In this document: positions 2,107-39,048 of the stretch, in pieces
Position numbering within the stretch: position 1 is the first letter of the stretch
How the letters are laid out: every line of letters starts with the position of its first letter
Origin: a virus
Length of the DNA stretch: 39,112 nucleotides
Strand: one strand, 5' to 3'
Virus record (IMG/VR): IMGVR_UViG_3300023212_000488
Span: 1 to 39,112 of that record
Position numbers and translations under genes: made by a program
The notes under the pieces: model-generated
What the model was told of the DNA's origin: nothing
Database searches by the model: none
Seen by the model: only the letters and a program-made list of their open reading frames with translations

Positions 2107-2434
2107 GATGTTTTTCCTGGTAATATTCCCATTCGATTCTTGGATCGCCATCAGCTCTTCCTTTTGGTAGATTGGGTATAATACAATCTGCTAGCTGATC
2201 GCGAATCCATTTAAGAGAAGATACAAGATTATCGAAATCTAGAAGTCGAGTGGCAAGCCTTGTCATTTTGATCTTGCATGGCAAAGAGACCTCATTATGA
2301 GTCCTTTGCTGATATGCAAGCTTAATGAAAAATTGCTGGCTTTTATGCCTTTTCGATTTGATTGTCCAATGCTCGCTCGTATTAGATTCGCTTATAGTTA
2401 TGATGTTGGAGACCCATGTATATTTCTTATCCAT
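2072..2434 (-). CDS. rusA: RusA-like Holliday junction resolvase
   Basis: The product is 120 aa. PCKIKMTRLATRLLDFDNLVSSLKWIRDQLAD...DGDPRI aligns by eye with the RusA core (D-x-D-N-L ... DD). Confidence 0.5.
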   Translation of the reverse strand: MDKKYTWVSNIITISESNTSEHWTIKSKRHKSQQFFIKLAYQQRTHNEVSLPCKIKMTRLATRLLDFDNLVSSLKWIRDQLADCIIPNLPKGRADGDPRIEWEYYQEKHPIPAVKIEIYQ

Positions 2435-2547
2435 CTGATAATAAAATCTTTACGAAATATATTGTTTCATTTCTCTTTTTCTGATATTGAATAGGCAAAA
2501 AATAACACTAAACAAAGAGATCCATATGCTTCTTAAGTATTTTTGTT

Positions 2548-2823
2548 TCAGTCTCTTCTTAAATCAGATCGCAGTCCCTCAACATGATCTTGATATTTAT
2601 CATGAATCTTGTTGAATGCAGATGCAAAACTTCTTAAAACAGAACGCTTTATTGTTTCGAAGTCACCATCAGGATCGTGAATCATATGATTAAAATACAG
2701 CCACTTACACAAAAACATTCCTTCATCCATCACAGTCATTATTTTTTCTTTAATGTTGTTTGCTTCTGCATCACTTGCTGCGGCCATATTTTCTCCTGTC
2801 ATATTTTGAAAAACAAAAAACAC
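2548..2823 (-). CDS. hypothetical protein
   Basis: ORF from the track, with no recognisable motif. Confidence 0.45.
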   Translation of the reverse strand: MFFVFQNMTGENMAAASDAEANNIKEKIMTVMDEGMFLCKWLYFNHMIHDPDGDFETIKRSVLRSFASAFNKIHDKYQDHVEGLRSDLRRD

Positions 2824-2839
2824 AACCCAAAAAAAATTT

Positions 2840-3082
2840 ATGGAAAAACCAGGAAATTATATATTCAAAAACTTCTCTCGTAAACTAGTTGCAAAACGTT
2901 ATGAAAGGAACCTAACTCAGGAAAAGTTATCTGAATTAGTCGACATTCATGTTGTGACAATTCAAGCTTTGGAAAGAGGTGTAAGAAACCCGTCATTTGC
3001 TACTGCTATTAAATTATCAAAAGTTTTAGACATCCCTATCGCTGAGCTTGCTGAAGCATGCTTAGAAGAGCTAGAGATCTAA
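2840..3082 (+). CDS. XRE-family helix-turn-helix transcriptional regulator
   Basis: LTQEKLSELVDIHVVTIQALERGVRNPSFATAIKLSKVLDIPIAEL is a canonical HTH_3 pattern. Confidence 0.8.
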   Translation: MEKPGNYIFKNFSRKLVAKRYERNLTQEKLSELVDIHVVTIQALERGVRNPSFATAIKLSKVLDIPIAELAEACLEELEI

Positions 3083-3117
3083 AGCATTGTCACTTATATA
3101 TGCACTTTCAAAAAACG

Positions 3118-4056
3118 TCAAGCAATTTGGCATTGATACATTTTCATCTTGTCTTTCAACCTCTCTGTAAATCCTTTTTCTGTGTATTTTAAGAAATCTG
3201 GAGCCTTTTGAGAGGTGTAAAAGATAAACTCAACACCTTTAGCTAAGATATCTATCCCTAAAAAGGATGGTTTTTTAGCTTTCTGGATGATTTCTGCTGC
3301 TGCCTTCTTGTTGATGCTTTCTTCATCATCTTTGCTCAATGGAGGCACAAGCTTTTGCTTACATGCCCATTTTAGCGCTTGGATCAATCCCTTGGTATGC
3401 TTTGTTTCCGGATGTAGAGCCCAAGCTACGGCGTTTTTAACGTCATCTTCGCTATAATGGGTTGTTATCCATTGCTTTTCATAAGGGTCTATCTGCAAAG
3501 ATTCAAGGCATCCATAGACTGCCTTTTGCTGTTGTTTTTTTTCAGAAGAAACAGCAGCAATCGGCGAAGCCGCCTTTTCTTTTGTTGTTGTTTCTTTTGT
3601 ATATATATTTTCTTTTGTGGGTGTCCCATGGGACACTGGGGGGGGTGTTCGGTGGGACACTGGGGGGGTGTCCGACGGGACACTGGTATAAGAATTTTTA
3701 AAACAAGCCATTTCTTCTTCTGTCTCAATACCATCCGATGGATCATGAATTTCTCGTTCATCGGTTTCAGTCACCAGTCCATAGTAACATTTTTGATTGC
3801 CATTGGAACCCACAATTCGTTTGAAAATAAGGTTCTTTTGGATCAACCTAATTAAAATTTTACATACCGATCTTCGTTCATAACCGGTCTTTTGGGCAAG
3901 CATGCTTAAAGTGATCCAATCTTCACATTTATGCCATCCGAAAGTTTGGCGAATAATTATAAGCAAGACACGCATTTCTCCTTCATTAAGAGTTTTCATG
4001 ATCTCATCAAAGAAAATATTTGGAGTGTTGGTATAATTAGGAGCAGGAATTTTCAT
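3118..4056 (-). CDS. replication initiator, lambda O-like (N-terminal winged-helix Rep_O domain)
   Basis: NIFFDEIMKTLNEGEMRVLLIIIRQTFGWHKCEDWITLSMLAQKTGYERRSVCKILIRLIQKNLI resembles the phage replication protein O N-terminus. The ATG at 4056 has GGAGG plus 6 nt upstream. A Pro/Thr linker is encoded by the iterons. Confidence 0.7.
   Translation of the reverse strand: MKIPAPNYTNTPNIFFDEIMKTLNEGEMRVLLIIIRQTFGWHKCEDWITLSMLAQKTGYERRSVCKILIRLIQKNLIFKRIVGSNGNQKCYYGLVTETDEREIHDPSDGIETEEEMACFKNSYTSVPSDTPPVSHRTPPPVSHGTPTKENIYTKETTTKEKAASPIAAVSSEKKQQQKAVYGCLESLQIDPYEKQWITTHYSEDDVKNAVAWALHPETKHTKGLIQALKWACKQKLVPPLSKDDEESINKKAAAEIIQKAKKPSFLGIDILAKGVEFIFYTSQKAPDFLKYTEKGFTERLKDKMKMYQCQIA
3575..3687. other. 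putative origin of replication: three 23-24-bp iterons plus adjoining AT-rich tract, inside the rep gene
   Basis: The units start at 3621, 3645 and 3668, and each carries GTGT(C/T)C-N4-GGACAC followed by TGG and a G-run. The first is the perfect palindrome GTGTCCCATGGGACAC. An AT-rich stretch lies at 3575-3618. Confidence 0.55.
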
Positions 4057-4276
4057 AAAAAACCTCCAAAATCCCAATATTGATGAGTTCTTTTCTGAAT
4101 ATTTCAGGCATGTCTTTCCAATGAATAAGATTGGATTCAAGAAGAGTGTAATATCCTTTAGCAGTTACAGAAAGAATTGGATTTGACAAAATTCTTTTAT
4201 CAATCTGCACATAAGGATTTTCTCTATCATGAGGACATCGTTGAAAAGTAGGTTCATTAGGAATATGATTTTTCAT
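4037..4276 (-). CDS. hypothetical protein upstream of rep (79 aa)
   Basis: The ATG at 4276 has AAGGAG plus 5 nt upstream. The gene overlaps the rep start by 20 nt. Confidence 0.55.
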   Translation of the reverse strand: MKNHIPNEPTFQRCPHDRENPYVQIDKRILSNPILSVTAKGYYTLLESNLIHWKDMPEIFRKELINIGILEVFYENSCS

Positions 4277-4671: not shown

Positions 4672-4965
4672 TCATGAATCTTCAAATTCCTCGAATTCTT
4701 GCCAATCTACAAGTTCGGCGCATATATGTCCAGGTTTTGAATCAAAGAGGCTCACAAGCCCTTCGTTGTTCAAAGCTCTGATATCGTTTGTGACCTTATT
4801 AGGGTGAAATTTTGTGTATAGTTCCTTCTTAGGTATATGTACACAGCAGTTTGTATCGCGCTTTTCCCACAAGTACATATATAAAGTTGCTGCTCCTGAG
4901 CAATGTTCTAAAACTTGTTCTAGAAATGGTTTAGGGGGATAATCCCATAGTTGTGCTAAAGCCAT
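4672..4965 (-). CDS. hypothetical protein (acidic C-terminus)
   Basis: ORF from the track with SD AAGGAAGG upstream of the ATG. Confidence 0.55.
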   Translation of the reverse strand: MALAQLWDYPPKPFLEQVLEHCSGAATLYMYLWEKRDTNCCVHIPKKELYTKFHPNKVTNDIRALNNEGLVSLFDSKPGHICAELVDWQEFEEFEDS

Positions 4966-5021
4966 AACCTTCCTTTCTGTTGGGCGTTATATCTATATTA
5001 GATTTAAAAATTTCGCACCTA

Positions 5022-5056
5022 CACATTTTGCATAAAACAAAAATATGTGTTATGCA
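5022..5056. promoter_or_regulatory. operator-like nested inverted repeats
   Basis: TGCATAA (5029-5035) and TTATGCA (5050-5056) are separated by 14 nt. CACAT (5022-5026) pairs with ATGTG (5045-5049). Confidence 0.3.
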
Positions 5057-5092
5057 TTGGTGTAAGAATTTTTTTTAACGTGGGGTGTGATC

Positions 5093-5212
5093 ATGGATAG
5101 TGTTTTCTTAGAACTTATAGAAGGTTTGAAAAAAGATAAAGTACTAAAATGGCTTGTGGGGGGATGGCTGACGTTGGTTTCTGGAACAATCATAACTTTA
5201 TTATGTATATGA
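5093..5212 (+). CDS. 39-aa peptide with C-terminal TM segment (MDSVFLELIEGLKKDKVLKWLVGGWLTLVSGTIITLLCI)
   Basis: Hand translation, with GGGGTG upstream. The stop abuts the convergent HTH gene. Confidence 0.3.
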   Translation: MDSVFLELIEGLKKDKVLKWLVGGWLTLVSGTIITLLCI

Positions 5213-5485
5213 TTATTCCTGAGAATCCTTCTCCTTTTTCGCAGAATCTTTTGCTTTTGATTTTAGTCGTATACTGTGCATTATTTCTCTACATGTGACC
5301 TTTCCAAAGGTAGCATCTTCGATACGTATGGCGGTAGAAAGCATAGGTTCGCGTCCATTGATCACACTTTTCAAAGTAACATATGAAATACCAGTGCTTT
5401 GAGAGAATTCCCAAAGAGATAAGTTGTTTATTTTCAAAAACTCAGATAGATCCATGCGTAAATTTTCACTTTCTTGTGTTGACAA
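5213..5485 (-). CDS. Cro/CI-type HTH regulator
   Basis: LSLWEFSQSTGISYVTLKSVINGREPMLSTAIRIEDATFGKV is an HTH pattern. The track start is a TTG, and the ATG at 5455 (MDLSEF...) is an alternative. The gene is divergent from the early plus-strand operon. Confidence 0.7.
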   Translation of the reverse strand: MSTQESENLRMDLSEFLKINNLSLWEFSQSTGISYVTLKSVINGREPMLSTAIRIEDATFGKVTCREIMHSIRLKSKAKDSAKKEKDSQE

Positions 5486-5505
5486 GATTTACTGACGTAT
5501 AATAT
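5479..5505 (+). promoter_or_regulatory. candidate early promoter (TTGACA ... TATAAT/TAATAT)
   Basis: A perfect TTGACA lies at 5479-5484. TATAAT at 5498-5503 gives a 13-nt spacer and TAATAT at 5500-5505 gives 15 nt, so the spacing is suboptimal. Confidence 0.35.
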
Positions 5506-5538
5506 AGTAAAGACATCACTCAATGAACACCTCGTTTA

Positions 5539-5739
5539 TTGATGGGTGAGACTATAACAGAGAGTAATTATATGGACAAAGACAAAATGAGAAAAGAGAT
5601 CATTATCCTTAAATTGCAATTAGATAGGATAGATGACTTAATGATTCAAATGCGCGATCAAATAGATTCTTTACAGAATCAAATCATGAACATTGAAGAG
5701 CAAGAAATTGAAGATGCTTGGAGGAAAATATGTATCTAG
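5539..5739 (+). CDS. hypothetical coiled-coil protein
   Basis: ORF from the track. The start is uncertain (TTG 5539, ATG 5542 or ATG 5572). Confidence 0.5.
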   Translation: MMGETITESNYMDKDKMRKEIIILKLQLDRIDDLMIQMRDQIDSLQNQIMNIEEQEIEDAWRKICI

Positions 5740-6032
5740 ATGTTGATTGCGCAAAGGATTATTTCAAGGAGCGCATGGTAGAAAAAATGGAAGAGCGCAA
5801 AGAAGAAGCTGTAGAAGCCGTCGCAAATATCGTAGGAAAAGAGTTAGCTGAAGCTTTTACTAAAGTTCTTTCATCTGCTTATGAGTATGGTTGCCCTGAA
5901 GCAATTAGATTAGCTAGCTGTTTAGGACTGGATGACGACGACTTTTTATGTATCGAAGAAAAATACGATGAATTTGTAGATAGAATGAATCAAATATACG
6001 AAGCAAGATATGTTTCCGCAATGGAGGATTAA
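5730..6032 (+). CDS. hypothetical acidic protein
   Basis: The ATG at 5730 is preceded by GGAGGA plus 4 nt. Confidence 0.55.
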   Translation: MYLDVDCAKDYFKERMVEKMEERKEEAVEAVANIVGKELAEAFTKVLSSAYEYGCPEAIRLASCLGLDDDDFLCIEEKYDEFVDRMNQIYEARYVSAMED

Positions 6033-9358: not shown

Positions 9359-10835
9359 AATTAAATGTTGCAGCTGCATTTGCCATTTGAACGACCGCTG
9401 TTGCCGAACTTGTTTTAGAAGCTGTAATTGTTCCTGTAGTTAAGTTTAAAGTGGGATTAAAATTTATTTGTGTTCCAGCTATTGAAGCCCAAGCCCAACC
9501 AGCTCCATTTATAAATATTGTGCCTTGAGGAACATAATTTGCCATATTTTTAACAGTAAATGGTAAAGATCCAATTAGCGCATTGCCTGTTCCTGTAGCT
9601 GCGGTTATGACAATTCGACCTTCCACATAAACTAGATTACCAACAATTGTATACCAACCAACTTGAGTTGTATATGTTGTTGTTCCTGAAACAGACCCAT
9701 CTACAGTTGGAGTCCAAGTGCCAAAATTCAGTGGAGTTCTTGTTGTAACGTCTACAATTTGGCCAGAAGCTGAAAATTGAATCGGAGTATAGTTTAAAGT
9801 TCCAGCTCCTGTAACAACGTGAGAGGCATTAGAACTCGATACCTCACATTGACACATAGTCAAAGTTTGTGATATCGAAACTGCAGCAGCAGTTCCTGAT
9901 AAAAATACTGCTGATCCTGCTCTACTAGTTCCTGAACCACCTACTGTCAAAGCTGTTGTATTTATAGCATTGCAATCGATATCACCGAAATTTATCGCTA
10001 TTCCTGCTGTGGAAGAAGTTGTTATCGGGTTTAATATTTTGGTATGTTCGATTATAACTTTACCAGCAGAAGCTGTATTTGCAGTAGTGCTCGCTCCAGT
10101 ATTAGTAAGAAGACAATATTCGAAAGTAAGAGTGCCAGTGCTAGACATCGAAAAATAAGCTATTCCTGTGGTGCCTAAATTGCCTTGACACTGAAATAAA
10201 TTAATCGCAGATGATGATGAAGATGATGAATAACTAATGCCTGTGTTATTTGAGCAATTTAGATAACATTGAGTAAGATTCAAAATTGATGCAACGGAAC
10301 CCGAAACTGTTACACAATTTCCAGAATTAGTTTGAAGACGAATTCCTGAAATTGTAACTGTTCCAGCAGTAGAAAGAGTACAGTTGCCATTTATTGTTAC
10401 ATTGGGAGTTTGCGCATCACAATCAAAAGCTGTTAAATTTACACCAGCCTTTAGAGTCAAATTTTCAGTATAAACTCCAGTGTTGCCAGGCATAATAAAA
10501 ATTGTATCACCAGCTGATGCTGCATTAATAGCATTCTGGATGGTTACTTGATTACCGCCGGAATTTGGAATAGGGTTTACAATCCATTTAGCTGTGTGTA
10601 GATCAGGAACTACATTTGGATTAGATTTAATGTTGATTGTCCCTGGGCCATTGGTGATAGTGATACTATTGTCGGATGAACTTAATGTTCCAATGTTGCA
10701 ATGAGTTCCACCAGCATTTAAAGCTGTTGAACCAATAAGCAATTGGCCGTCTTGCAACATTTGTCCTGAAGCTATTGCTTGTCCGCTAAAGTCAATATTA
10801 TTTGCGAACACAACATCATTTCTAAAACCTGCCAT
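9336..10835 (-). CDS. tailspike/tail fibre protein, probable right-handed beta-helix
   Basis: The protein is Thr/Ser/Asn/Gly-rich with few charged residues. AINAASAGDTIFIMPGNTGVYTENLTLKAGVNLTAF resembles a pectate-lyase-fold repeat. The C-terminus has a GTWTPTVDG...TYTTQVGWYTIVGNLVYVEG module. Confidence 0.6.
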   Translation of the reverse strand: MAGFRNDVVFANNIDFSGQAIASGQMLQDGQLLIGSTALNAGGTHCNIGTLSSSDNSITITNGPGTINIKSNPNVVPDLHTAKWIVNPIPNSGGNQVTIQNAINAASAGDTIFIMPGNTGVYTENLTLKAGVNLTAFDCDAQTPNVTINGNCTLSTAGTVTISGIRLQTNSGNCVTVSGSVASILNLTQCYLNCSNNTGISYSSSSSSSAINLFQCQGNLGTTGIAYFSMSSTGTLTFEYCLLTNTGASTTANTASAGKVIIEHTKILNPITTSSTAGIAINFGDIDCNAINTTALTVGGSGTSRAGSAVFLSGTAAAVSISQTLTMCQCEVSSSNASHVVTGAGTLNYTPIQFSASGQIVDVTTRTPLNFGTWTPTVDGSVSGTTTYTTQVGWYTIVGNLVYVEGRIVITAATGTGNALIGSLPFTVKNMANYVPQGTIFINGAGWAWASIAGTQINFNPTLNLTTGTITASKTSSATAVVQMANAAATFNFTAWYQI

Positions 10836-24483: not shown

Positions 24484-24906
24484 TTATGGCGATATATTTA
24501 TAAAGCTTCCTGGGATATTCGTCGTGGGTATTGATCTTCCTGTGCTGCTAATAATGCCAGAATTGACATCTCCAATAGCTGCAATCTGTGGCAGTGTCTT
24601 TGTTTGGAAAGGTAAAAAAGTTGGTGAAGCAATGAAGCTACTTGCTCCATTAGAGTTGATATCCAAAATAACTTGATTAGGAGCAGGAATAGAAAGCACT
24701 ATTCCAGTTTGCTCATTAAGCTCTCGTGAGCCATATTTATCAGGGATCAATAAGCGAACCTGTTGTCCAACAACATAATTATTGTTGACTGAAGTAGTGA
24801 CCGTTGTGTTTACTCCTAGAGAAATAGCTGAAATAACAAAGACACTAGGTTGAAAATTCTGAGGCTCTATCGGTGGATTAGAAAAAGGCGGTCTTGGTCC
24901 TGGCAT
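24484..24906 (-). CDS. small structural protein with one beta-barrel module shared with the 378-aa protein
   Basis: YVVGQQVRLLIPDKYGSRELNEQTGIVLSI...LPQIAAIGDVNSG parallels segments of the 24957..26093 product. Confidence 0.5.
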   Translation of the reverse strand: MPGPRPPFSNPPIEPQNFQPSVFVISAISLGVNTTVTTSVNNNYVVGQQVRLLIPDKYGSRELNEQTGIVLSIPAPNQVILDINSNGASSFIASPTFLPFQTKTLPQIAAIGDVNSGIISSTGRSIPTTNIPGSFINISP

Positions 24907-24956: not shown

Positions 24957-26093
24957 TTACGTATTCTGATCGTGCAAGTAAGCTCTCCAGAAAATTACAT
25001 CTGAAGTACTACCAGCTACGCCACTACCAATGATAAATCCTTGGAAAGTGCCGTTAATGTACGCACCAGCAATAGCAGGACCATTAATGGTCTGTGTAGC
25101 TGTTGTAAGTCCATTATAGCCGTTAAAGATACTTGGAGATGTAAAGTTACTGAGAAGCGAACCACTGTTAATATCACCAACAGCAACGATCTGTGGGAAT
25201 TTCTCGCCAGGAAAAGCAGCAAATGTTTGGTTGCTGTTAAAGGCGGTAAACCCAGTAGAAACGATGTTGACAGTGACTTGAGTGGAACTATTAACTACTG
25301 TCACAAATCCATAGATCGGAGATCCAGGAATTAAGGCGTTAGGAAGCGAGTTTAACTGAGTTGTACCCCAGCTAGCAGGAATCCTAAAAGCAACTTCTTG
25401 ACCCACACTAAAGTTGTGTGGTGTGGTAGTTGTCACCAAAGTTGTAGCACCAGTAGTAATTGCACTAATAACGTTTGTCCCAGGAACATATAAAGCAGGA
25501 AAGAGCACTTGCTTAAATGAACCCACGTTATTTGTCGAAGTAGCTGTATTAAACGCAGTATAATTCGACTGGTTAGTATTCCATGGAATAGTAAAGGTCG
25601 TAGCACCTGTTACAGTGATGGCAAAAGGAATGCCAGCAATTTGCTGCATACCAGTTGTCGATGTCTGTGCCAAGTTAGAGAACACAACTACGTTACCGGT
25701 AACTAAACCGTGATTACCAACGGTGGTAATCCCTGCCGATGCTGCTTTACTAATCTGAAAGTCAGAAACAGGAGAACCACCATGTTGATTAACAGGTCCA
25801 TATTGCAGAGCAATACCACCTGAGAGTGTGCTAAAGCCTGTACCATTTGTTTGACCGCCAGAGCTTGTTCCACCGACAACGTCAATGTAAACTTCGCCTG
25901 TACCAAACAAGTTAGCAGAAGCTGCACCTTGCCCCATATCAGTGTACCATCTTGCAGAAGTGATACCTGAACCAGCTACCTGTCTTGTTTTATTCTCAAT
26001 TTCAATGAAATTTGGAACAAAAGGAAGAACAACTGGAGTTGAACCACCTAAAGATGTCACTTGTCCACTTACTAATGTTGAATAATGAGCCAT
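24957..26093 (-). CDS. abundant head/virion surface protein candidate with two small beta-barrel modules
   Basis: The gene lies immediately downstream of the capsid gene, with AAGGAGGG plus 5 nt upstream. The modules are GNVVVFSNLAQTSTTGMQQIAGIPFAITV and VGQEVAFRIPASWGTTQLNSL...GFVTVV. Confidence 0.5.
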   Translation of the reverse strand: MAHYSTLVSGQVTSLGGSTPVVLPFVPNFIEIENKTRQVAGSGITSARWYTDMGQGAASANLFGTGEVYIDVVGGTSSGGQTNGTGFSTLSGGIALQYGPVNQHGGSPVSDFQISKAASAGITTVGNHGLVTGNVVVFSNLAQTSTTGMQQIAGIPFAITVTGATTFTIPWNTNQSNYTAFNTATSTNNVGSFKQVLFPALYVPGTNVISAITTGATTLVTTTTPHNFSVGQEVAFRIPASWGTTQLNSLPNALIPGSPIYGFVTVVNSSTQVTVNIVSTGFTAFNSNQTFAAFPGEKFPQIVAVGDINSGSLLSNFTSPSIFNGYNGLTTATQTINGPAIAGAYINGTFQGFIIGSGVAGSTSDVIFWRAYLHDQNT

Positions 26094-26108: not shown

Positions 26109-27080
26109 TTATGGTCCGAAGAGACCAGATAGTCTCGTCGAAGTTAGGTTTCTGATAGCTGTATCTTGAGTGATCGCCTGCGCTTGAGCGAATTTAACCG
26201 CCAAAGTAGCATTTTGTGCGAGCATTCCAGAATAGTAAGGGTCACGATAAATCAGGTTCATGGAATATCCATCCTGATTGATGTGCGTGATAGCCTGTTT
26301 ACCCAAAACAGTATTATAATATACGTCTTGGCCGTTAGCAGAAGCGCCTCTAGCAACAGGAGCTTCAGAACTTGTAAGCACACGAATATTAAATGCAGAA
26401 CCAAACTCACTTGGCAATGCAGAAGCATTCGTAGGATAGTTCCACTGGTTTAAGAACCCAGCACCAACTAGACCATCAAAGTCTGTTTGGAGCTCTGTTG
26501 AGCTCAGCATAAAATATGCAGAACGTACAGGGCCTGTACCAAAACGATCCATACCCTCAATACCGCTCATAAATTTATAAGCGTTATTCGAATCAAGAGT
26601 TGTTGCTACCAAGCTAAAATCGCTCATCGCGAGATTAGTTGGATTGTCTCCATTAGAGCCACCACCAGCGTTAATAACGGAAGCGGCGGAGACAATATAG
26701 TCGCGGAGGATCAAATCCTCTGCCTGGCGCATCGCGACGGCTAATCGCTCTGACACCCAAGCTAAAACACCTTCTTGGTCTTGCAAAATAACTTGTTCGT
26801 TGATTATGCAACCAGTACCAAAGAAAGCCATTTGCGCATCGATAATGTCCCTTTGTGGAACTTGCGCTGGGGGATCTATCCCCGAGTTACCCAATTGTAT
26901 TGTGGGCGGTTGTAATGCGCGTGGGCGCATAAAACGGCATGTGGTCCCGCCATTTGGTGGCATAGAGACTTTGTCACAAACCGTGATGTAGTTCATTGTG
27001 GGAGTAGGCACATAAAGCATCGCAGGAGCTAAGCTCTGGAGAATTAGTGGCCCCAAATTCCCGGTAGTCGTAATCGACAT
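26109..27080 (-). CDS. major capsid protein (inferred)
   Basis: The 323-aa gene follows the scaffold and heads a tightly packed structural block. It has SD AAGAGG and a long leader. The call rests on position and size. Confidence 0.6.
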   Translation of the reverse strand: MSITTTGNLGPLILQSLAPAMLYVPTPTMNYITVCDKVSMPPNGGTTCRFMRPRALQPPTIQLGNSGIDPPAQVPQRDIIDAQMAFFGTGCIINEQVILQDQEGVLAWVSERLAVAMRQAEDLILRDYIVSAASVINAGGGSNGDNPTNLAMSDFSLVATTLDSNNAYKFMSGIEGMDRFGTGPVRSAYFMLSSTELQTDFDGLVGAGFLNQWNYPTNASALPSEFGSAFNIRVLTSSEAPVARGASANGQDVYYNTVLGKQAITHINQDGYSMNLIYRDPYYSGMLAQNATLAVKFAQAQAITQDTAIRNLTSTRLSGLFGP

Positions 27081-27300
27081 TCTAACCTCTTAGGTTAAAT
27101 GTTGATGACATGACGATCGGTAGACGAGCCTATTTACGTCAGTTTTCGATCATATCTGCACGGTTGCGAAGCCGCTAACGCGAAATATCCCCAGCTAAGC
27201 CTACTTAATCTCTGACGCATAACGTCAGCCTTCAGTTAACCAGGGATCACACATAACGCTTGTGCGGGCGGAATATCTATTTTATCAAATATTTATTTTA
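27081..27300 (-). other. GC-enriched, hairpin-rich non-coding leader upstream of the capsid gene
   Basis: There is no plausible ORF. The hairpins are CTGACG/CGTCAG (around 27212-27228), TGACG...CGTCA, and TAACCT/AGGTTA over the SD. GCGAAATATCC and GCGGAATATCT form a direct repeat. Confidence 0.4.
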
Positions 27301-27369
27301 AGTCAAAAGATCTTGCGTTTTTTGTAGTCCCTTTGGTAGATTAATTTCTTAATTTAATAAAGGGATTTT

Positions 27370-28713
27370 ATGAAACTTAGACCATATCAGAAAGATGCAA
27401 TCAACTCCATAAAAGAGCATTTTAAAAGCAATCAAAAGCAATTTATTTGCATGCCAACAGGAAGCGGCAAAACAATAACTTTTCTTTCATATGCGAAAGA
27501 AAATCATGAAAAGATTCTAATCATTGTTCCTTCACGAGAACTTTTGAAACAAGTTTATGAATCAGCTCTTTTGTTTTTTCATAAAGATGAAATCTCAAGA
27601 CATGGAGATATCTATCATGAGGATCCAGCATTTTCTAAAGTTCACATAGGAATTATTAACAGTATTAGACGCGATTATGGATCTTTGTTAGATGATGAAT
27701 TGTTTGATCTAATCATTATCGATGAAGCTCATCACGTTCAAGCAGCTAGTTATGAAAAAATAATAACTTTTTTAGACACGTGGTCTTTTGAGGATCGACC
27801 TAAAATTTTAGGTGTTACCGCCACTCCTGATAGACGAGATGGAAAACTTCTTCAGGATTTATTGCATTGTTGCACATTCGAACTACATATAACTGATTTG
27901 ATTAAGGAAAAATATCTTTGCGATTTAGAAGGATATAGAGTGAAAACAAATCTTGATTTGACTGGAATTCCTTTTTCAAACGGTGATTTCAGCACTATAG
28001 AACTTTACAGAATTTTAGGAACAAAAACGCGAAATGATTTTATCATAAACACATGTAAAAAAGAATTCAAAGATAGGAAAACGTTAATCTTTTGCATAAA
28101 CGTTCAGCATTCAAAAGAAATAAACAAGCTTTTGAATGAGAATGGGTTATCAAGCCGTCATATTGATTCAAAAACAAGTTCTATAGAAAGAAATGTCATT
28201 CTATCTGCTTTTAGAAATGGAGATATCTCTTTCTTATGTAACTGTCAACTTCTTTCTGAGGGATTCGATGAACCATCCATAGATGGAATTGTATTGGCTC
28301 GCCCTACATTAAGTCGTGCTTTATTTATTCAGATGATTGGGCGAGGTCTTAGAACTTTTCCGGGTAAAGAAAGTTGTAAGATTTTTGATATAGTAGATAA
28401 TCACAAAAATTTAATGAGTTTTAACGATATCATCGAAATGCATGAGACTTTTAAACCACTCGACTATTTCAAATCCTTCGACCAATTGAAAAATTATATT
28501 GAAGATTTACGAGTCGAACAAGCTGAATTTGTCATAGAAAGAACTCAATTTTTTAAAGAAAAGTCTATCGATTCTATTTATGCATATGCTCATATGACTG
28601 AGTATCTTGAAAAAAACAACATAATATTTCAAAACCCTATTACATTCAATGAAGCGAGTTTCCTCATTTGGATGGATAAGTTAAAAAAGGAGTACGCCAA
28701 TGGCCTCAATTGA
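27370..28713 (+). CDS. superfamily 2 DEAD/DEAH-box (ResIII-type) DNA helicase
   Basis: The motifs are LRPYQ, MPTGSGKT (I), DEAHH (II), TATP (III) and QMIGRGLR (VI). A possible TTGCGT-18-TAGATT promoter lies at 27313-27342. Confidence 0.85.
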   Translation: MKLRPYQKDAINSIKEHFKSNQKQFICMPTGSGKTITFLSYAKENHEKILIIVPSRELLKQVYESALLFFHKDEISRHGDIYHEDPAFSKVHIGIINSIRRDYGSLLDDELFDLIIIDEAHHVQAASYEKIITFLDTWSFEDRPKILGVTATPDRRDGKLLQDLLHCCTFELHITDLIKEKYLCDLEGYRVKTNLDLTGIPFSNGDFSTIELYRILGTKTRNDFIINTCKKEFKDRKTLIFCINVQHSKEINKLLNENGLSSRHIDSKTSSIERNVILSAFRNGDISFLCNCQLLSEGFDEPSIDGIVLARPTLSRALFIQMIGRGLRTFPGKESCKIFDIVDNHKNLMSFNDIIEMHETFKPLDYFKSFDQLKNYIEDLRVEQAEFVIERTQFFKEKSIDSIYAYAHMTEYLEKNNIIFQNPITFNEASFLIWMDKLKKEYANGLN

Positions 28714-29257
28714 AAAACGTGCGAAAAAGAACGGTGAGATTAACTACCAAGTAAATATAAGAAGAAAAGGGTTTGAAATTTATAAAACTTTTCGAACTGA
28801 AGAAGATGCAAATTTATATGCTTTTTACAAAGAAAGACTTATAGATAATATGGATAACTTCGAAATCGACATAAAAAACAGAGTGACGTTGAAAGATATA
28901 CTAGAAATAAAGCTTAATTCTGTTGAAGATATACGTGCTAGACAAGATATAGAAAATTCATATATGCGCGTTCATCCTTATATTGAAGATAAATTCTTAA
29001 GTGAAATTTCTTATGATGATTGGCTTCATATAGCAAAAAGTCTTTTGGGAGAAAGTGTTTATAGAGGAGCAAAAAATGAAAAAAACAAACGTCTAATGTC
29101 AGTTTCGACCTTAAGGAGATATTTTGCAGTGATGTCAAGCATTTTCTCAAATGCTGCTAATCATGGAATTAGAGTGCACAATCATCCGCTAGATGTTTTG
29201 AAGGCTTATATCTACCCTGAAGTGAATAAAGCAAAAAAGCAAAAAAATTCTATCTAA
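28700..29257 (+). CDS. tyrosine-integrase N-terminal half only (arm-binding plus SAM-like core-binding domains); catalytic domain absent
   Basis: KRAKKNGEINYQVNIRRKGFEIYKTFRTEEDANLYA looks like an arm-type domain. ...STLRRYFAVMSSIFSNAANHGIRVHNHPLD looks like a core-binding domain. The ORF stops 25 nt before the tRNA. AAGGAG plus 7 nt lies upstream, and the start overlaps the helicase stop. Confidence 0.55.
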   Translation: MASIEKRAKKNGEINYQVNIRRKGFEIYKTFRTEEDANLYAFYKERLIDNMDNFEIDIKNRVTLKDILEIKLNSVEDIRARQDIENSYMRVHPYIEDKFLSEISYDDWLHIAKSLLGESVYRGAKNEKNKRLMSVSTLRRYFAVMSSIFSNAANHGIRVHNHPLDVLKAYIYPEVNKAKKQKNSI

Positions 29258-29282
29258 AAAAGGAAAATTTATTCCGAGCTAG

Positions 29283-29354
29283 CTCAGCGGCAGAGCAGTG
29301 GACTGTTAATCCATTGGTCGTAGGTTCGAATCCTACACTCGGAGAAAAAAAAGA
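29283..29354 (+). tRNA. tRNA-Asn (anticodon GTT)
   Basis: Manual cloverleaf: acceptor TCCGAGC/ACTCGGA (one mismatch), D arm GCTC-AGCGGCA-GAGC, anticodon arm GTGGA-CTGTTAA-TCCAT, T arm GTAGG-TTCGAAT-CCTAC. No CCA is encoded. Confidence 0.85.
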
Positions 29355-29392
29355 GAGCTAAGCGAAGTCTCCCTTAGCTCTCTAGCTTCCTA
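29355..29392 (-). terminator. rho-independent terminator (minus strand)
   Basis: A perfect 10-bp stem pairs GAGAGCTAAG with CTTAGCTCTC. On the minus strand it is followed by T8. Confidence 0.7.
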
Positions 29393-29432
29393 TCATTCCG
29401 AAATCACTTTAATCAGCATAAAGAATTTAAGC

Positions 29433-29467
29433 AATAAAAAAGGGCCAAAGGACCGTCCTTTGACCCC
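29433..29467 (-). terminator. rho-independent terminator (minus strand), tandem with the previous one
   Basis: The stem pairs CAAAGG with CCTTTG and has G/C extensions. On the minus strand it is followed by CTTTTTTATT. Confidence 0.5.
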
Positions 29468-29527
29468 ACTCTTAACAAAAGGGTGAAAATATGAAAACGC
29501 TCACATCATAGCATAAAAAGAAATTTA

Positions 29528-29812
29528 TCAAAACGTTTTTATATCTTTTAGAATCCAATTCATGCACACATTTACATCGTTTTCATCTAAAGAAACAGGT
29601 AACCATTTTTCATAAAAGTGTTCATATTCAACAAAAGATAGGCCGCCGTGTCTATCTACTTTCATAAAACATAAAACATTTTTCTTGATTAAATGATTCA
29701 CTACAGCAATATAAACAATGGTTTCCTCATGCAATACACAGCCCAAATTACCGATTTGGGGTACAACATCTTTGACCGAAACATATTTCGTCACATCAGA
29801 TACTTTATTCAT
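29528..29812 (-). CDS. hypothetical protein
   Basis: The ATG at 29812 lies 2 nt after the upstream stop, with AAGGTGA upstream. The track start at 29851 overlaps the previous gene. Confidence 0.5.
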   Translation of the reverse strand: MNKVSDVTKYVSVKDVVPQIGNLGCVLHEETIVYIAVVNHLIKKNVLCFMKVDRHGGLSFVEYEHFYEKWLPVSLDENDVNVCMNWILKDIKTF

Positions 29813-29814
29813 AA

Positions 29815-30000
29815 TTAATTTTTCACCTTGTAGCTTTGCAAAAGCTCGCATATCTCATCGATAGCAGCATCTTTAAAGTCGCCATCTTTAAGATAATCGT
29901 CCTCAAAATGCATTGTGAGGTCGTTTACTTTTGCTAGTATCTCTGAAAATGTAAGAAGATCTTTATTTGATTTTAGTGCTGCAAATAGTCTATCAAACAT
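29815..30000 (-). CDS. hypothetical acidic protein
   Basis: ORF from the track, directly downstream of the scaffold gene. Confidence 0.5.
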   Translation of the reverse strand: MFDRLFAALKSNKDLLTFSEILAKVNDLTMHFEDDYLKDGDFKDAAIDEICELLQSYKVKN

Positions 30001-30010
30001 ATTTCCCCCT

Positions 30011-30673
30011 TTATATTCTCATGTTTTTTTGAAGCTCTTTCATCTTTGCGTAGGCTTGTTTTTGGCCAGCATCACTAAAGTCTCCAGCTGCTGCATAAGG
30101 CGCTGTGCCTACTCCGGACGGCTGATAATAAGGACTCTTACGATTTGCATCGATCTTTTCTTGAATAGATGGTGCTTTTGCTGCTGGTTTATCTAATCCT
30201 AGTGCCTTGATATTCTTGTAGACCAGTTTTTGTCTTTCAAATGTATCAGGCATCTCTAATATGGCTTCAGCTAGCTCAGGATCTTTTTGAGCGAACTTTT
30301 CAGCATGTTGCATCACATCAAAAAAATCTGGATTTGATTTCATCCAACTATCTCTTTTCTGTTGGTCAAGTAGATGACGAGCCTTTTCTTCTGCTTTTTT
30401 CTCGATTTTTTCTTCTAATTTTTTCTCAAATGAAGAAAGCTTACGATCAAGGCGTTTGTGATCTACATAAGGATCATCGTATTCATCTTCTTCAACTTGG
30501 ACTTGCTTTTTCATTTGATATTCGCGAGCTAAACGTTCTGCTTCTTCACGCTTTGTGCGCTCCTCAGATACCTGTCGCTGGTATTTTGCCTCAAGGGCAC
30601 GGAAATTCAGTTCTTTGTCTGATGGTTTTTGTTCTTGATTTTGTGGTTGACTCTCTTGCGTCTGAGCTGTCAT
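30011..30673 (-). CDS. scaffolding protein (inferred)
   Basis: The 220-aa product is highly charged and helical (E/K/Q-rich). The gene lies between the portal and capsid genes. SD AAAGGAA lies upstream. Confidence 0.55.
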   Translation of the reverse strand: MTAQTQESQPQNQEQKPSDKELNFRALEAKYQRQVSEERTKREEAERLAREYQMKKQVQVEEDEYDDPYVDHKRLDRKLSSFEKKLEEKIEKKAEEKARHLLDQQKRDSWMKSNPDFFDVMQHAEKFAQKDPELAEAILEMPDTFERQKLVYKNIKALGLDKPAAKAPSIQEKIDANRKSPYYQPSGVGTAPYAAAGDFSDAGQKQAYAKMKELQKNMRI

Positions 30674-38394: not shown

Positions 38395-39048
38395 TTAGAT
38401 AAGAGTTGTACATTCATGATATATGAATTGGTACAAGCTCATCAATTCTTGGAGTGCTTTCTTGTCTGGATGTTTCACCTCAACAATTCCTAAACCATCG
38501 CTTGATGAGTTGCCAAAAGTCTTGCGATTGCCTATTGTAAATTTTAGACATTTGAACTCTTCGCATTCTTCCAAAATGCTAATAGCATCATCATTATCTG
38601 TTCCTTTCGGATCGGCTTGATTAATGAATGCAAAAGCTTTTAGCTTGGGATTGACTGTGCGCATTTCGTTGATGATTGTTTTTACATCACCAATAGTCCA
38701 CACATCATATGATCGTGGTTTGAATGGTATTAAATAGACATCAGCCACAGATAAAGCCGAACGCTGTGATGTTGTGTCTCTTCCTCCAGCATCAATGATG
38801 ATATCATCATAATCTCCTTTCATTCTTTCAATTTGGAATCTTATTGTTTTGCCAGCGAGTTGAATTGTTGACCATTTGGTAGCAATTCCTAAAACATCTC
38901 TTTGATTAGAGAAGACTGATGTTGATTTTTGTTCATCAGCGTCGATAAGCAAAACTTTTTTGTTTGCTCCTGATCTTAATACAGCGAGATTGGTAGCAAT
39001 CGTTGTTTTACCGCTGCCACCTTTAACGCCTCCGACAAGAAGGATCAT
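38395..39048 (-). CDS. parA: ParA/Soj-family partition ATPase (small, type Ib-like)
   Basis: MILLVGGVKGGSGKTTIATNLA is a deviant Walker A, followed by LLIDADEQ. The product is 217 aa and lacks an N-terminal HTH. Confidence 0.85.
   Translation of the reverse strand: MILLVGGVKGGSGKTTIATNLAVLRSGANKKVLLIDADEQKSTSVFSNQRDVLGIATKWSTIQLAGKTIRFQIERMKGDYDDIIIDAGGRDTTSQRSALSVADVYLIPFKPRSYDVWTIGDVKTIINEMRTVNPKLKAFAFINQADPKGTDNDDAISILEECEEFKCLKFTIGNRKTFGNSSSDGLGIVEVKHPDKKALQELMSLYQFIYHECTTLI

Follow-up and report, generated by a model that had tools for sequence, protein, structure and literature searches.

A catalytic-domain-less integrase derivative as the probable partner of a RadD-like helicase in an accessory, position-variable phage cassette

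We analyzed positions 1 to 39,112 of the IMG/VR virus record IMGVR_UViG_3300023212_000488 (hereafter, the window), which cover a 39.2-kb phage contig almost entirely, and focused on a plus-strand block consisting of a helicase gene, a 185-aa open reading frame (ORF) and a tRNA-Asn gene that sits amid minus-strand scaffold-like and capsid genes. With a probability of roughly 75%, we consider the 185-aa protein, here called IntN, to be an integrase-derived partner of the RadD-like helicase, both together forming a self-contained accessory cassette of variable position that is located in a hot spot. An earlier sequence-only reading of this DNA had described the same block within the minus-strand head module, and all features that it named are present; three aspects that it did not name are the helicase partnership, the cassette promoter and the patchy distribution at variable positions. 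The block comprises the following features.

27313–27342, plus strand: predicted cassette promoter with −35 box TTGCGT (27313–27318), 18-nt spacer and −10 box TAGATT (27337–27342), located by alignment to a 12-cassette consensus
27326–27367, plus strand: inverted repeat AGTCCCTTT (27326–27334) / AAAGGGATT (27359–27367), bracketing the −10 box
27370–28713, plus strand: superfamily 2 (SF2) helicase/translocase of 447 aa with ResIII, DEAD and Helicase_C domains, comprising a RadD-like core (residues 1–349) and a family-specific C-terminal region of ~100 aa
28700–29257, plus strand: IntN-like ORF of 185 aa overlapping the helicase stop codon by 14 nt, with an arm-binding-type domain (residues ~3–50), a core-binding-type helical domain (~58–183) and no catalytic domain
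29273–29344 (Rfam) or 29272–29345 (ARAGORN), plus strand: tRNA-Asn (GTT) with a complete cloverleaf and no encoded CCA

Based on a profile match, fold matches and the position of the domain boundary, the 185-aa protein corresponds to the arm-binding and core-binding domains of a tyrosine recombinase of the arm-binding type and ends where the catalytic domain would begin, as the sequence-only reading had proposed. Tyrosine recombinases of this kind are composed of an arm-binding, a core-binding (CB) and a catalytic (CAT) domain, the last carrying an RKHRH pentad and the tyrosine nucleophile (PMC8138268). When 123 short family members were compared with five full integrases using hhalign, family positions 1–173 aligned with integrase positions 1–177 (99.5%, E = 8e-23, 166 columns). 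The PHROGs collection likewise assigned the window protein to the integrase family phrog_1 (E = 8.6e-10), covering profile positions 114–264 of 611 and hence the N-terminal part only. In full-length integrase relatives, the Phage_integrase domain begins at residues 177–209 (CAT from residue 183 in P0152), and the window ORF ends ~12 residues past the last integrase-aligned column. An AlphaFold (AF2) model built with 13 homologues (predicted local distance difference test, pLDDT, of 89) displays a three-stranded sheet (residues 3–8, 14–22 and 25–31) and a helix (34–50), followed by a helical domain. Its best Foldseek match in the PDB was full-length lambda Int (1z1b; 171 columns), followed by isolated N-terminal and core-binding domains of integrases, with CB-domain matches to 3lys, 2kob, 2kd1, 2oxo and 2kj8 at TMt values of 0.61–0.75. 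Searching BFVD in the same manner retrieved a 170-aa uncharacterised phage protein as the best match and then more than 25 full integrases over their N-terminal halves.

While the CB domain and the arm-binding fold were both recognizable, Phage_integrase was matched neither by the window ORF nor by any of the 123 family members. The sequence-only reading had asked whether catalytic remnants persist downstream of the ORF; none was found in 29240–29560 or in the whole window, and a hidden downstream catalytic domain was ruled out on these grounds. Since the catalytic domain was searched for and is absent, IntN is not a functional tyrosine recombinase, although it is clearly an evolutionary derivative of these enzymes. 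With lambda Int and other complex integrases (nearest full-length relatives P0152, P0156 and P0159; 354–373 aa), it shares the N-terminal sheet plus helix and the helical CB domain, and the N-termini themselves are alike (MASIEKR..G..Y.V.IR.KG in IntN versus MA[ST]I.KRV...G...YRV..R in integrases). Unlike integrases, however, IntN lacks both the RKHRH pentad and the tyrosine nucleophile, making it incapable of recombining DNA, contains a near-invariant, family-specific YKERLIDNM helix, and is encoded together with a helicase rather than beside an attP site.

To define the extent of the family, we searched 1.8 billion representatives exhaustively with a profile, clusters being formed at 50% identity. 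Of the 289 matches, 136 had E ≤ 1e-10, and almost all are 170–197 aa long and matched end-to-end; genuine integrases of 344–373 aa appeared only from E ~1e-9 onwards. The ~180-aa length, the invariant residues and the YKERLIDNM helix are retained down to ~25% identity, and because of these three properties we regard IntN as an old, selected and intact family that probably lost its catalytic domain long ago. A scan of 185,579 species genomes with the IntN profile gave no relative, our literature search found no account of a helicase paired with an integrase that lacks the catalytic domain, and no curated model covers the pair. The relatives carrying the same gene bear on the sequence-only reading in two ways: their conservation argues against the recent truncation that it had considered (see below), whereas the link to integrases stands, and its other suggestion, a domesticated integrase-derived DNA-binding protein, agrees well with a conserved family that is devoid of the catalytic domain.

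Its impression that the ORF is not decaying was also borne out. A Shine-Dalgarno (SD) sequence, AAGGAG, lies at 28687–28692, 7 nt upstream of the IntN ATG, and the 14-nt overlap with the helicase gene suggests that translation of the two may be coupled. A non-functional fragment that is open merely by chance would be in line with the failure of curated families to recognize IntN, but it would have to account for invariant residues across hundreds of sequences, a confidently predicted fold, and a conserved SD sequence and overlap. We therefore give this idea practically no credence, and a pseudogene was ruled out by conservation.

The gene that IntN overlaps encodes an SF2 protein with PTGSGKT and DEAH motifs, which matched Pfam ResIII (2.8e-30), DEAD and Helicase_C above their cut-offs as well as phrog_16 (E = 1.6e-88). 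Against PDB sequences, helicase residues 3–348 matched RadD (6jde; E = 5e-35), with further matches to UvsW (2oca) and a type I R subunit (3h1t). The best NCBIfam match, the model of RadD (NF053632), reached 179.5 bits compared to a cut-off of 720 and was covered at profile positions 1–362 of 573 only, which places the protein outside the RadD/YejH family proper. RadD is described as acting on recombination intermediates together with partner proteins (PMC8887467, PMC10238739). Both RecA-like motor domains of the E. coli protein (YejH) align with the phage helicase, whereas the C-terminal region of RadD (profile positions 363–573) is missing and a family-specific tail of ~100 aa is found instead. 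The partners also differ, being SSB or RecA for RadD and, as far as known, IntN for the phage helicase.

This pairing is highly consistent. In 23 of the 25 loci examined, IntN is immediately preceded, in the same orientation, by a helicase of the same family, whose stop codon overlaps the IntN start by 8–29 nt in most of them (exactly 14 nt in nine). The arrangement is kept even at L054, whose IntN is only 29% identical to that of the window, and in L056 the two proteins are naturally fused into a single 628-aa protein (P0155) within an Erf/YqaJ module. The only cassette-like helicase without IntN is that of locus L098, and here the family-specific C-terminal region of the helicase is missing too; this joint absence suggests that the C-terminal region and IntN may depend on each other. 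The L098 helicase itself (2212–3924, plus strand; 570 aa) lies between the TerL and portal genes and combines the same motor core with a different C-terminal region of ~200 aa, which may be an alternative targeting module. Neither this region nor the C-terminal region of the window helicase gave an informative Pfam match.

SF2 motors that operate with a separate or fused DNA-recognition module include HsdR of type I restriction-modification systems with HsdS/M, herpesvirus UL9, and T4 UvsW with UvsW.1. By analogy, the cassette would follow the same logic of an ATP-driven SF2 motor combined with a DNA-recognition partner, and its small partner gene directly follows that of the helicase, as UvsW.1 follows UvsW. 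The likeness drawn here is one of logic; the recognition module is integrase-derived in the cassette, and nuclease and methylase are absent.

Upstream of the helicase ATG, a consensus of TTGAnT-17-TATGAT is conserved in 12 cassettes from five genomic positions. A simple promoter scan did not detect the window copy, which was assigned by alignment to this consensus. From this conservation, we infer a sigma70-type promoter that would drive both helicase and IntN. The inverted repeat is part of the same region, and its right arm, which ends 2 nt short of the helicase ATG, doubles as the ribosome-binding region. Of the 12 cassettes, 11 keep both the spacer element AATCC(C/G) and the complementary (A/G)GGGATT ahead of the ATG, and we hypothesize that the repeat serves as an operator. 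IntN might accordingly be a transcription factor only, autoregulating the cassette promoter via AATCCC...GGGATT, with the helicase acting independently. The bracketing of the −10 box and the ribosome-binding site in these 11 cassettes speaks in favor of this idea, as do the arm-binding and CB domains, both of which are DNA-binding modules (PMC8138268). It is difficult to reconcile, however, with the natural fusion, with strict overlap-coupled synteny down to 29% identity, and with the L098 helicase, which lacks the family-specific C-terminal region along with IntN. We thus regard an exclusive role in transcription as doubtful, while autoregulation through the repeat may be an additional activity.

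We then considered where the cassette occurs. As loci found via the cassette itself would give a biased picture, relatives were also sampled via their capsid, portal and Erf genes. Among phages with 84–95% identical capsids, the cassette occupies at least five positions.

Position 1, between scaffold and capsid genes: the window, L007, L059 and L095
Position 2, between TerL and portal genes, in either orientation: L057, L134, L119 and L232, with L009 beside the portal gene
Position 3, upstream of TerL: L225
Position 4, after capsid-proximal genes: L006 and L126
Position 5, in the early region: L058 and L056

The capsid search returned 248 IMG/VR relatives, the best 80 of which are 84–95% identical, and in about 8 of these 80 the cassette lies less than 10 kb from the capsid gene. 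Of 296 relatives found by portal, 79 portal-anchored loci were analyzed and four contained the cassette; none of the 11 Erf-anchored clade members did. In three genomes covered to 94–98% by overlapping loci, profile hidden Markov models of helicase and IntN found neither gene at E ≤ 10, with positive controls at E < 1e-50; two of the three leave less sequence uncovered than a cassette would need. Since neither gene is present in these near-complete genomes, the helicase–IntN cassette is accessory. Its proteins are 43–58% identical among carriers, compared to ~90% for the capsid. A separate scan with the helicase as a single protein gave no match.

Phage morons are accessory cargo found in intergenic hot spots of structural operons, and the cassette resembles them in being self-contained, equipped with a predicted sigma70-type promoter, bounded by terminators, often oriented opposite to the late genes, and variable in presence and position. 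The features of a moron-like accessory unit were all found, namely a conserved promoter (as predicted), terminators, at least five positions, and absence from at least two to three near-complete genomes. In contrast to usual morons, which carry a small conversion or defense gene, the cargo here is a two-gene DNA-motor module, and the cassette is also found in early or replication regions (L056, L058).

Two further observations concern cassette-carrying relatives. L009, whose portal is 76% identical to that of the window, encodes a 314-aa ORF resembling a complete tyrosine recombinase (4835–5779, minus strand; HxLR...Y) ~1 kb downstream of the cassette, with no counterpart in the window; because of this ORF, some clade members may integrate or resolve dimers. 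In L003, an Rfam int-alpA RNA was detected at 10411–10474 on the plus strand (37.7 bits; gathering threshold 35.8).

The distribution also invites a reading as an inter-element conflict module for superinfection exclusion, anti-satellite activity or anti-defense, in which IntN would mimic a rival integrase and direct the SF2 translocase to att or arm sites, possibly titrating them. Patchy accessory presence, variable position inside late operons and an own sigma70 promoter are moron-like, the scaffold–capsid gap is a cargo hot spot, and the helicase core resembles restriction and defense helicases. Searches of PADLOC-DB 2.0 with the helicase matched generic motor parts only, of PbeA (1.6e-33), a type IV restriction endonuclease (1e-30), a type I R subunit and Cas3, while IntN gave no match, and membership in a known anti-phage defense system was rejected on this basis. 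Given in addition that the cassette shows no nuclease or other effector, that the fused version resides in a recombination/replication module, and that no target element is known, we rate a conflict role as a serious rival, albeit an unlikely one, at clearly lower probability than a partnership in DNA metabolism. A more specific and still less probable version is a mobile, effector-less anti-integration or anti-satellite device exchanged among phages, in which IntN would recognize rival att or arm sites or integrase–DNA complexes and the translocase would strip or block them. A possible precedent is Odn of phage ICP1, reportedly a nuclease that targets the satellite of this phage, and thus a case in which a phage may have re-used the DNA-binding module of a mobile element to aim an enzyme at that very element. 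Unlike Odn, the cassette comprises no nuclease, and the anti-satellite reading is an analogy only.

The tRNA-Asn gene downstream of IntN had led the sequence-only reading to a different origin, in which the element recently left a tRNA-Asn attachment site by aberrant excision, taking the tRNA along and losing the 3′ half of the integrase gene. The tRNA is indeed complete (detected by ARAGORN and, with 63.8 bits versus a threshold of 29, by Rfam), and its distance from the ORF, given there as 25 nt, is in fact only 14–15 nt. This proximity, the exact stop at the CB/catalytic boundary and the recurrence of the IntN–tRNA adjacency in L007 and L095 are what an excision would explain. Several findings contradict it: more than 130 clusters at 50% identity, down to members ~25% identical, share the length of ~180 aa, the window holds no catalytic remnant, the IntN gene is coupled to a helicase, and most cassette carriers are without a tRNA. 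Conversely, tRNA-Asn occurs alone, without a cassette, in 12 loci. Altogether, the clade has ~15 distinct tRNA-Asn genes, which lie in either orientation at no fewer than four places and share 40–59 of 72 positions with the window copy.

The tRNA itself evolves as a functional gene of the phage lineage. Its copies in the window and L007 differ at three pairs of the anticodon stem and three of the T stem, yet every pair is maintained and none is broken, while at the base of the acceptor stem the window tRNA has a C7-A66 mismatch where L007 has U7-A66. No genomic tRNA was identical to the window copy, the best sharing 68 of 72 positions (Patescibacteria and gammaproteobacterial metagenome-assembled genomes); Chlamydiota tRNAs share 65 of 72 and have the A66 acceptor variant in common with it. 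An attP–int module at a tRNA gene is not what we found, as the catalytic domain is missing, the tRNA is complete and phage-borne, and an identical genomic tRNA is lacking. A recent excision is therefore very improbable. Because it occurs without the cassette, shows compensatory stem changes and has no identical genomic counterpart, the tRNA-Asn is best described as an independent, functional, phage-borne passenger of the same hot spot that is probably co-transcribed with the cassette, and its adjacency to IntN is a coincidence of shared location rather than a remnant of an attachment site. No other tRNA comes close to tRNA-Asn in number in this clade of phages, and its copies are very divergent; this prevalence suggests that selection has repeatedly favored additional Asn decoding. 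The phage is AT-rich, at ~37% GC.

Returning to the helicase–IntN partnership, we propose that IntN would supply recognition of a DNA site or structure via its two integrase-type DNA-binding domains and thereby anchor or target the RadD-like motor. The likeliest substrates would be recombination or replication intermediates of phage DNA, a preference based on the RadD-like core, on the L056 fusion within the Erf/YqaJ module, and on the Erf and exonuclease genes of the window. Several points weigh against this interpretation. The helicase–IntN complex, DNA binding by IntN and the biological role are what we infer rather than observe, and a patchy distribution together with a moron-like position would suit a defense or anti-defense role equally as well as one in DNA metabolism. 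Recognition of IntN as an integrase derivative is not uniform across methods: Pfam and NCBIfam gave no match for the window protein, no Pfam arm-domain model matched IntN, just 16 of 123 family members individually matched Phage_int_SAM_5, a sequence profile returned only noise from the PDB, and Foldseek against the PDB gave weak E-values, none better than 4e-3, albeit for mutually consistent matches. The cassette-less genomes are contigs from metagenomes, and we assume from their length that they are complete. Finally, around the cassette we found no direct or inverted repeats resembling arm or core sites other than the promoter repeat.

The site occupied in the window was further characterized by means of the following flanking features.

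26109–27080, minus strand: major capsid gene (phrog_1357)
27106–27156, minus strand: near-invariant capsid-gene leader block of ~51 nt, shared by the window, L007, L059 and L057; left boundary of the insertion site
29345–29383, minus strand: intrinsic terminator 1, hairpin 29352–29383 and U8 tract 29345–29352 (−23.1 kcal/mol, z −3.2)
29431–29467, minus strand: intrinsic terminator 2, hairpin with a 12-bp stem at 29441–29467, then UUUUUUAUU, U-tract 29431–29440 (−20.2 kcal/mol, z −3.4)
29528–29851 and 29815–30000, minus strand: small ORFs of 107 aa and 61 aa, respectively, downstream of the scaffold gene
30011–30673, minus strand: scaffold-like gene

Across 70 capsid-anchored relatives, the scaffold–capsid gap ranges from 165 to 4593 nt. 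It contains nothing recognizable in 62 of them, tRNA-Asn alone in three, other tRNAs in three, and the cassette plus tRNA-Asn in two, a pattern that marks the gap as an insertion hot spot for cargo. One relative (L122/L234) has an array of five tRNAs in this gap (Ala, Tyr, Thr, Gly, Arg), and many gaps of 0.4–4.4 kb (L060–L139) hold content without recognized identity. The 107-aa and 61-aa ORFs, for which we found no Pfam or PHROG match and, by tblastn, no homologue in the relatives tested, are other cargo of the hot spot outside the plus-strand cassette.

The capsid leader block is kept whether or not cargo is inserted upstream; in L057, for instance, the cassette does not lie upstream of the capsid gene. 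The block is more conserved than coding sequence, contains a possible hairpin that lacks covariation support, and probably serves the capsid gene as a late-promoter, activator or translational control element. Since the leader is retained with or without an insertion, a transcriptional break upstream of the capsid gene is the normal state in the clade. The sequence-only reading had seen the head operon as split here by two tandem minus-strand terminators flanking the tRNA. Both terminators are real, but they lie to the right of the tRNA, which is on one side of them with the 107-aa ORF on the other; likewise, the capsid gene is transcriptionally separate, but this is nothing special to the window, as cassette-less relatives keep both the 165–4593-nt gap and the leader. 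The leader of the window additionally contains a match to Rfam RF03075, 'DUF3800-VIII RNA' (27185–27249, minus strand; 43 bits, gathering threshold 40.2), inside a segment of ~70 nt that only the window has and that L007, L059 and L057 lack; no relative matched at the gathering threshold.

Beyond the head module, the window encodes ParA-like (38395–39048), ParB-like (923–1396) and O-like replication initiator (3118–4140) proteins, Erf, a RecE-like exonuclease, a methyltransferase, TerL, a P22-type portal, and the scaffold-like and major capsid proteins. The presence of the ParA-, ParB- and O-like genes in the absence of any integrase in the window suggests a plasmid-prophage or a strictly lytic lifestyle. 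Replication modules are mosaic, with L057 carrying a DnaB-type helicase and a helix-turn-helix initiator in place of the replication genes of the window. Downstream of the capsid gene on the minus strand, a 140-aa (24484–24906) and a 378-aa protein (24957–26093) have a repeated domain in common, as seen from reciprocal tblastn cross-hits, and the latter also has an E1_FCCH-like Pfam match; both may be decoration or head-fiber proteins. Among deposited phages, searched with DNA and protein, the only DNA match was to the tRNA, and the capsid and IntN proteins gave none.

Taken together, IntN represents a sizeable family outside curated libraries, with at least 136 clusters at 50% identity from hundreds of phage genomes, in which the DNA-binding half of an integrase, devoid of the catalytic domain, appears to have been put to stable new use as the obligate partner of a helicase. 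For annotation, this means that such genes should not be read as broken integrases, nor be taken to indicate lysogeny or tRNA-directed integration. The well-sampled clade of ~40-kb uncultured phages, with its defined scaffold–capsid cargo hot spot, is useful for following the movement of accessory cassettes and tRNAs, and the helicase–IntN pair offers a testable case in which the DNA-recognition modules of a recombinase may have been exapted to aim other DNA enzymes.

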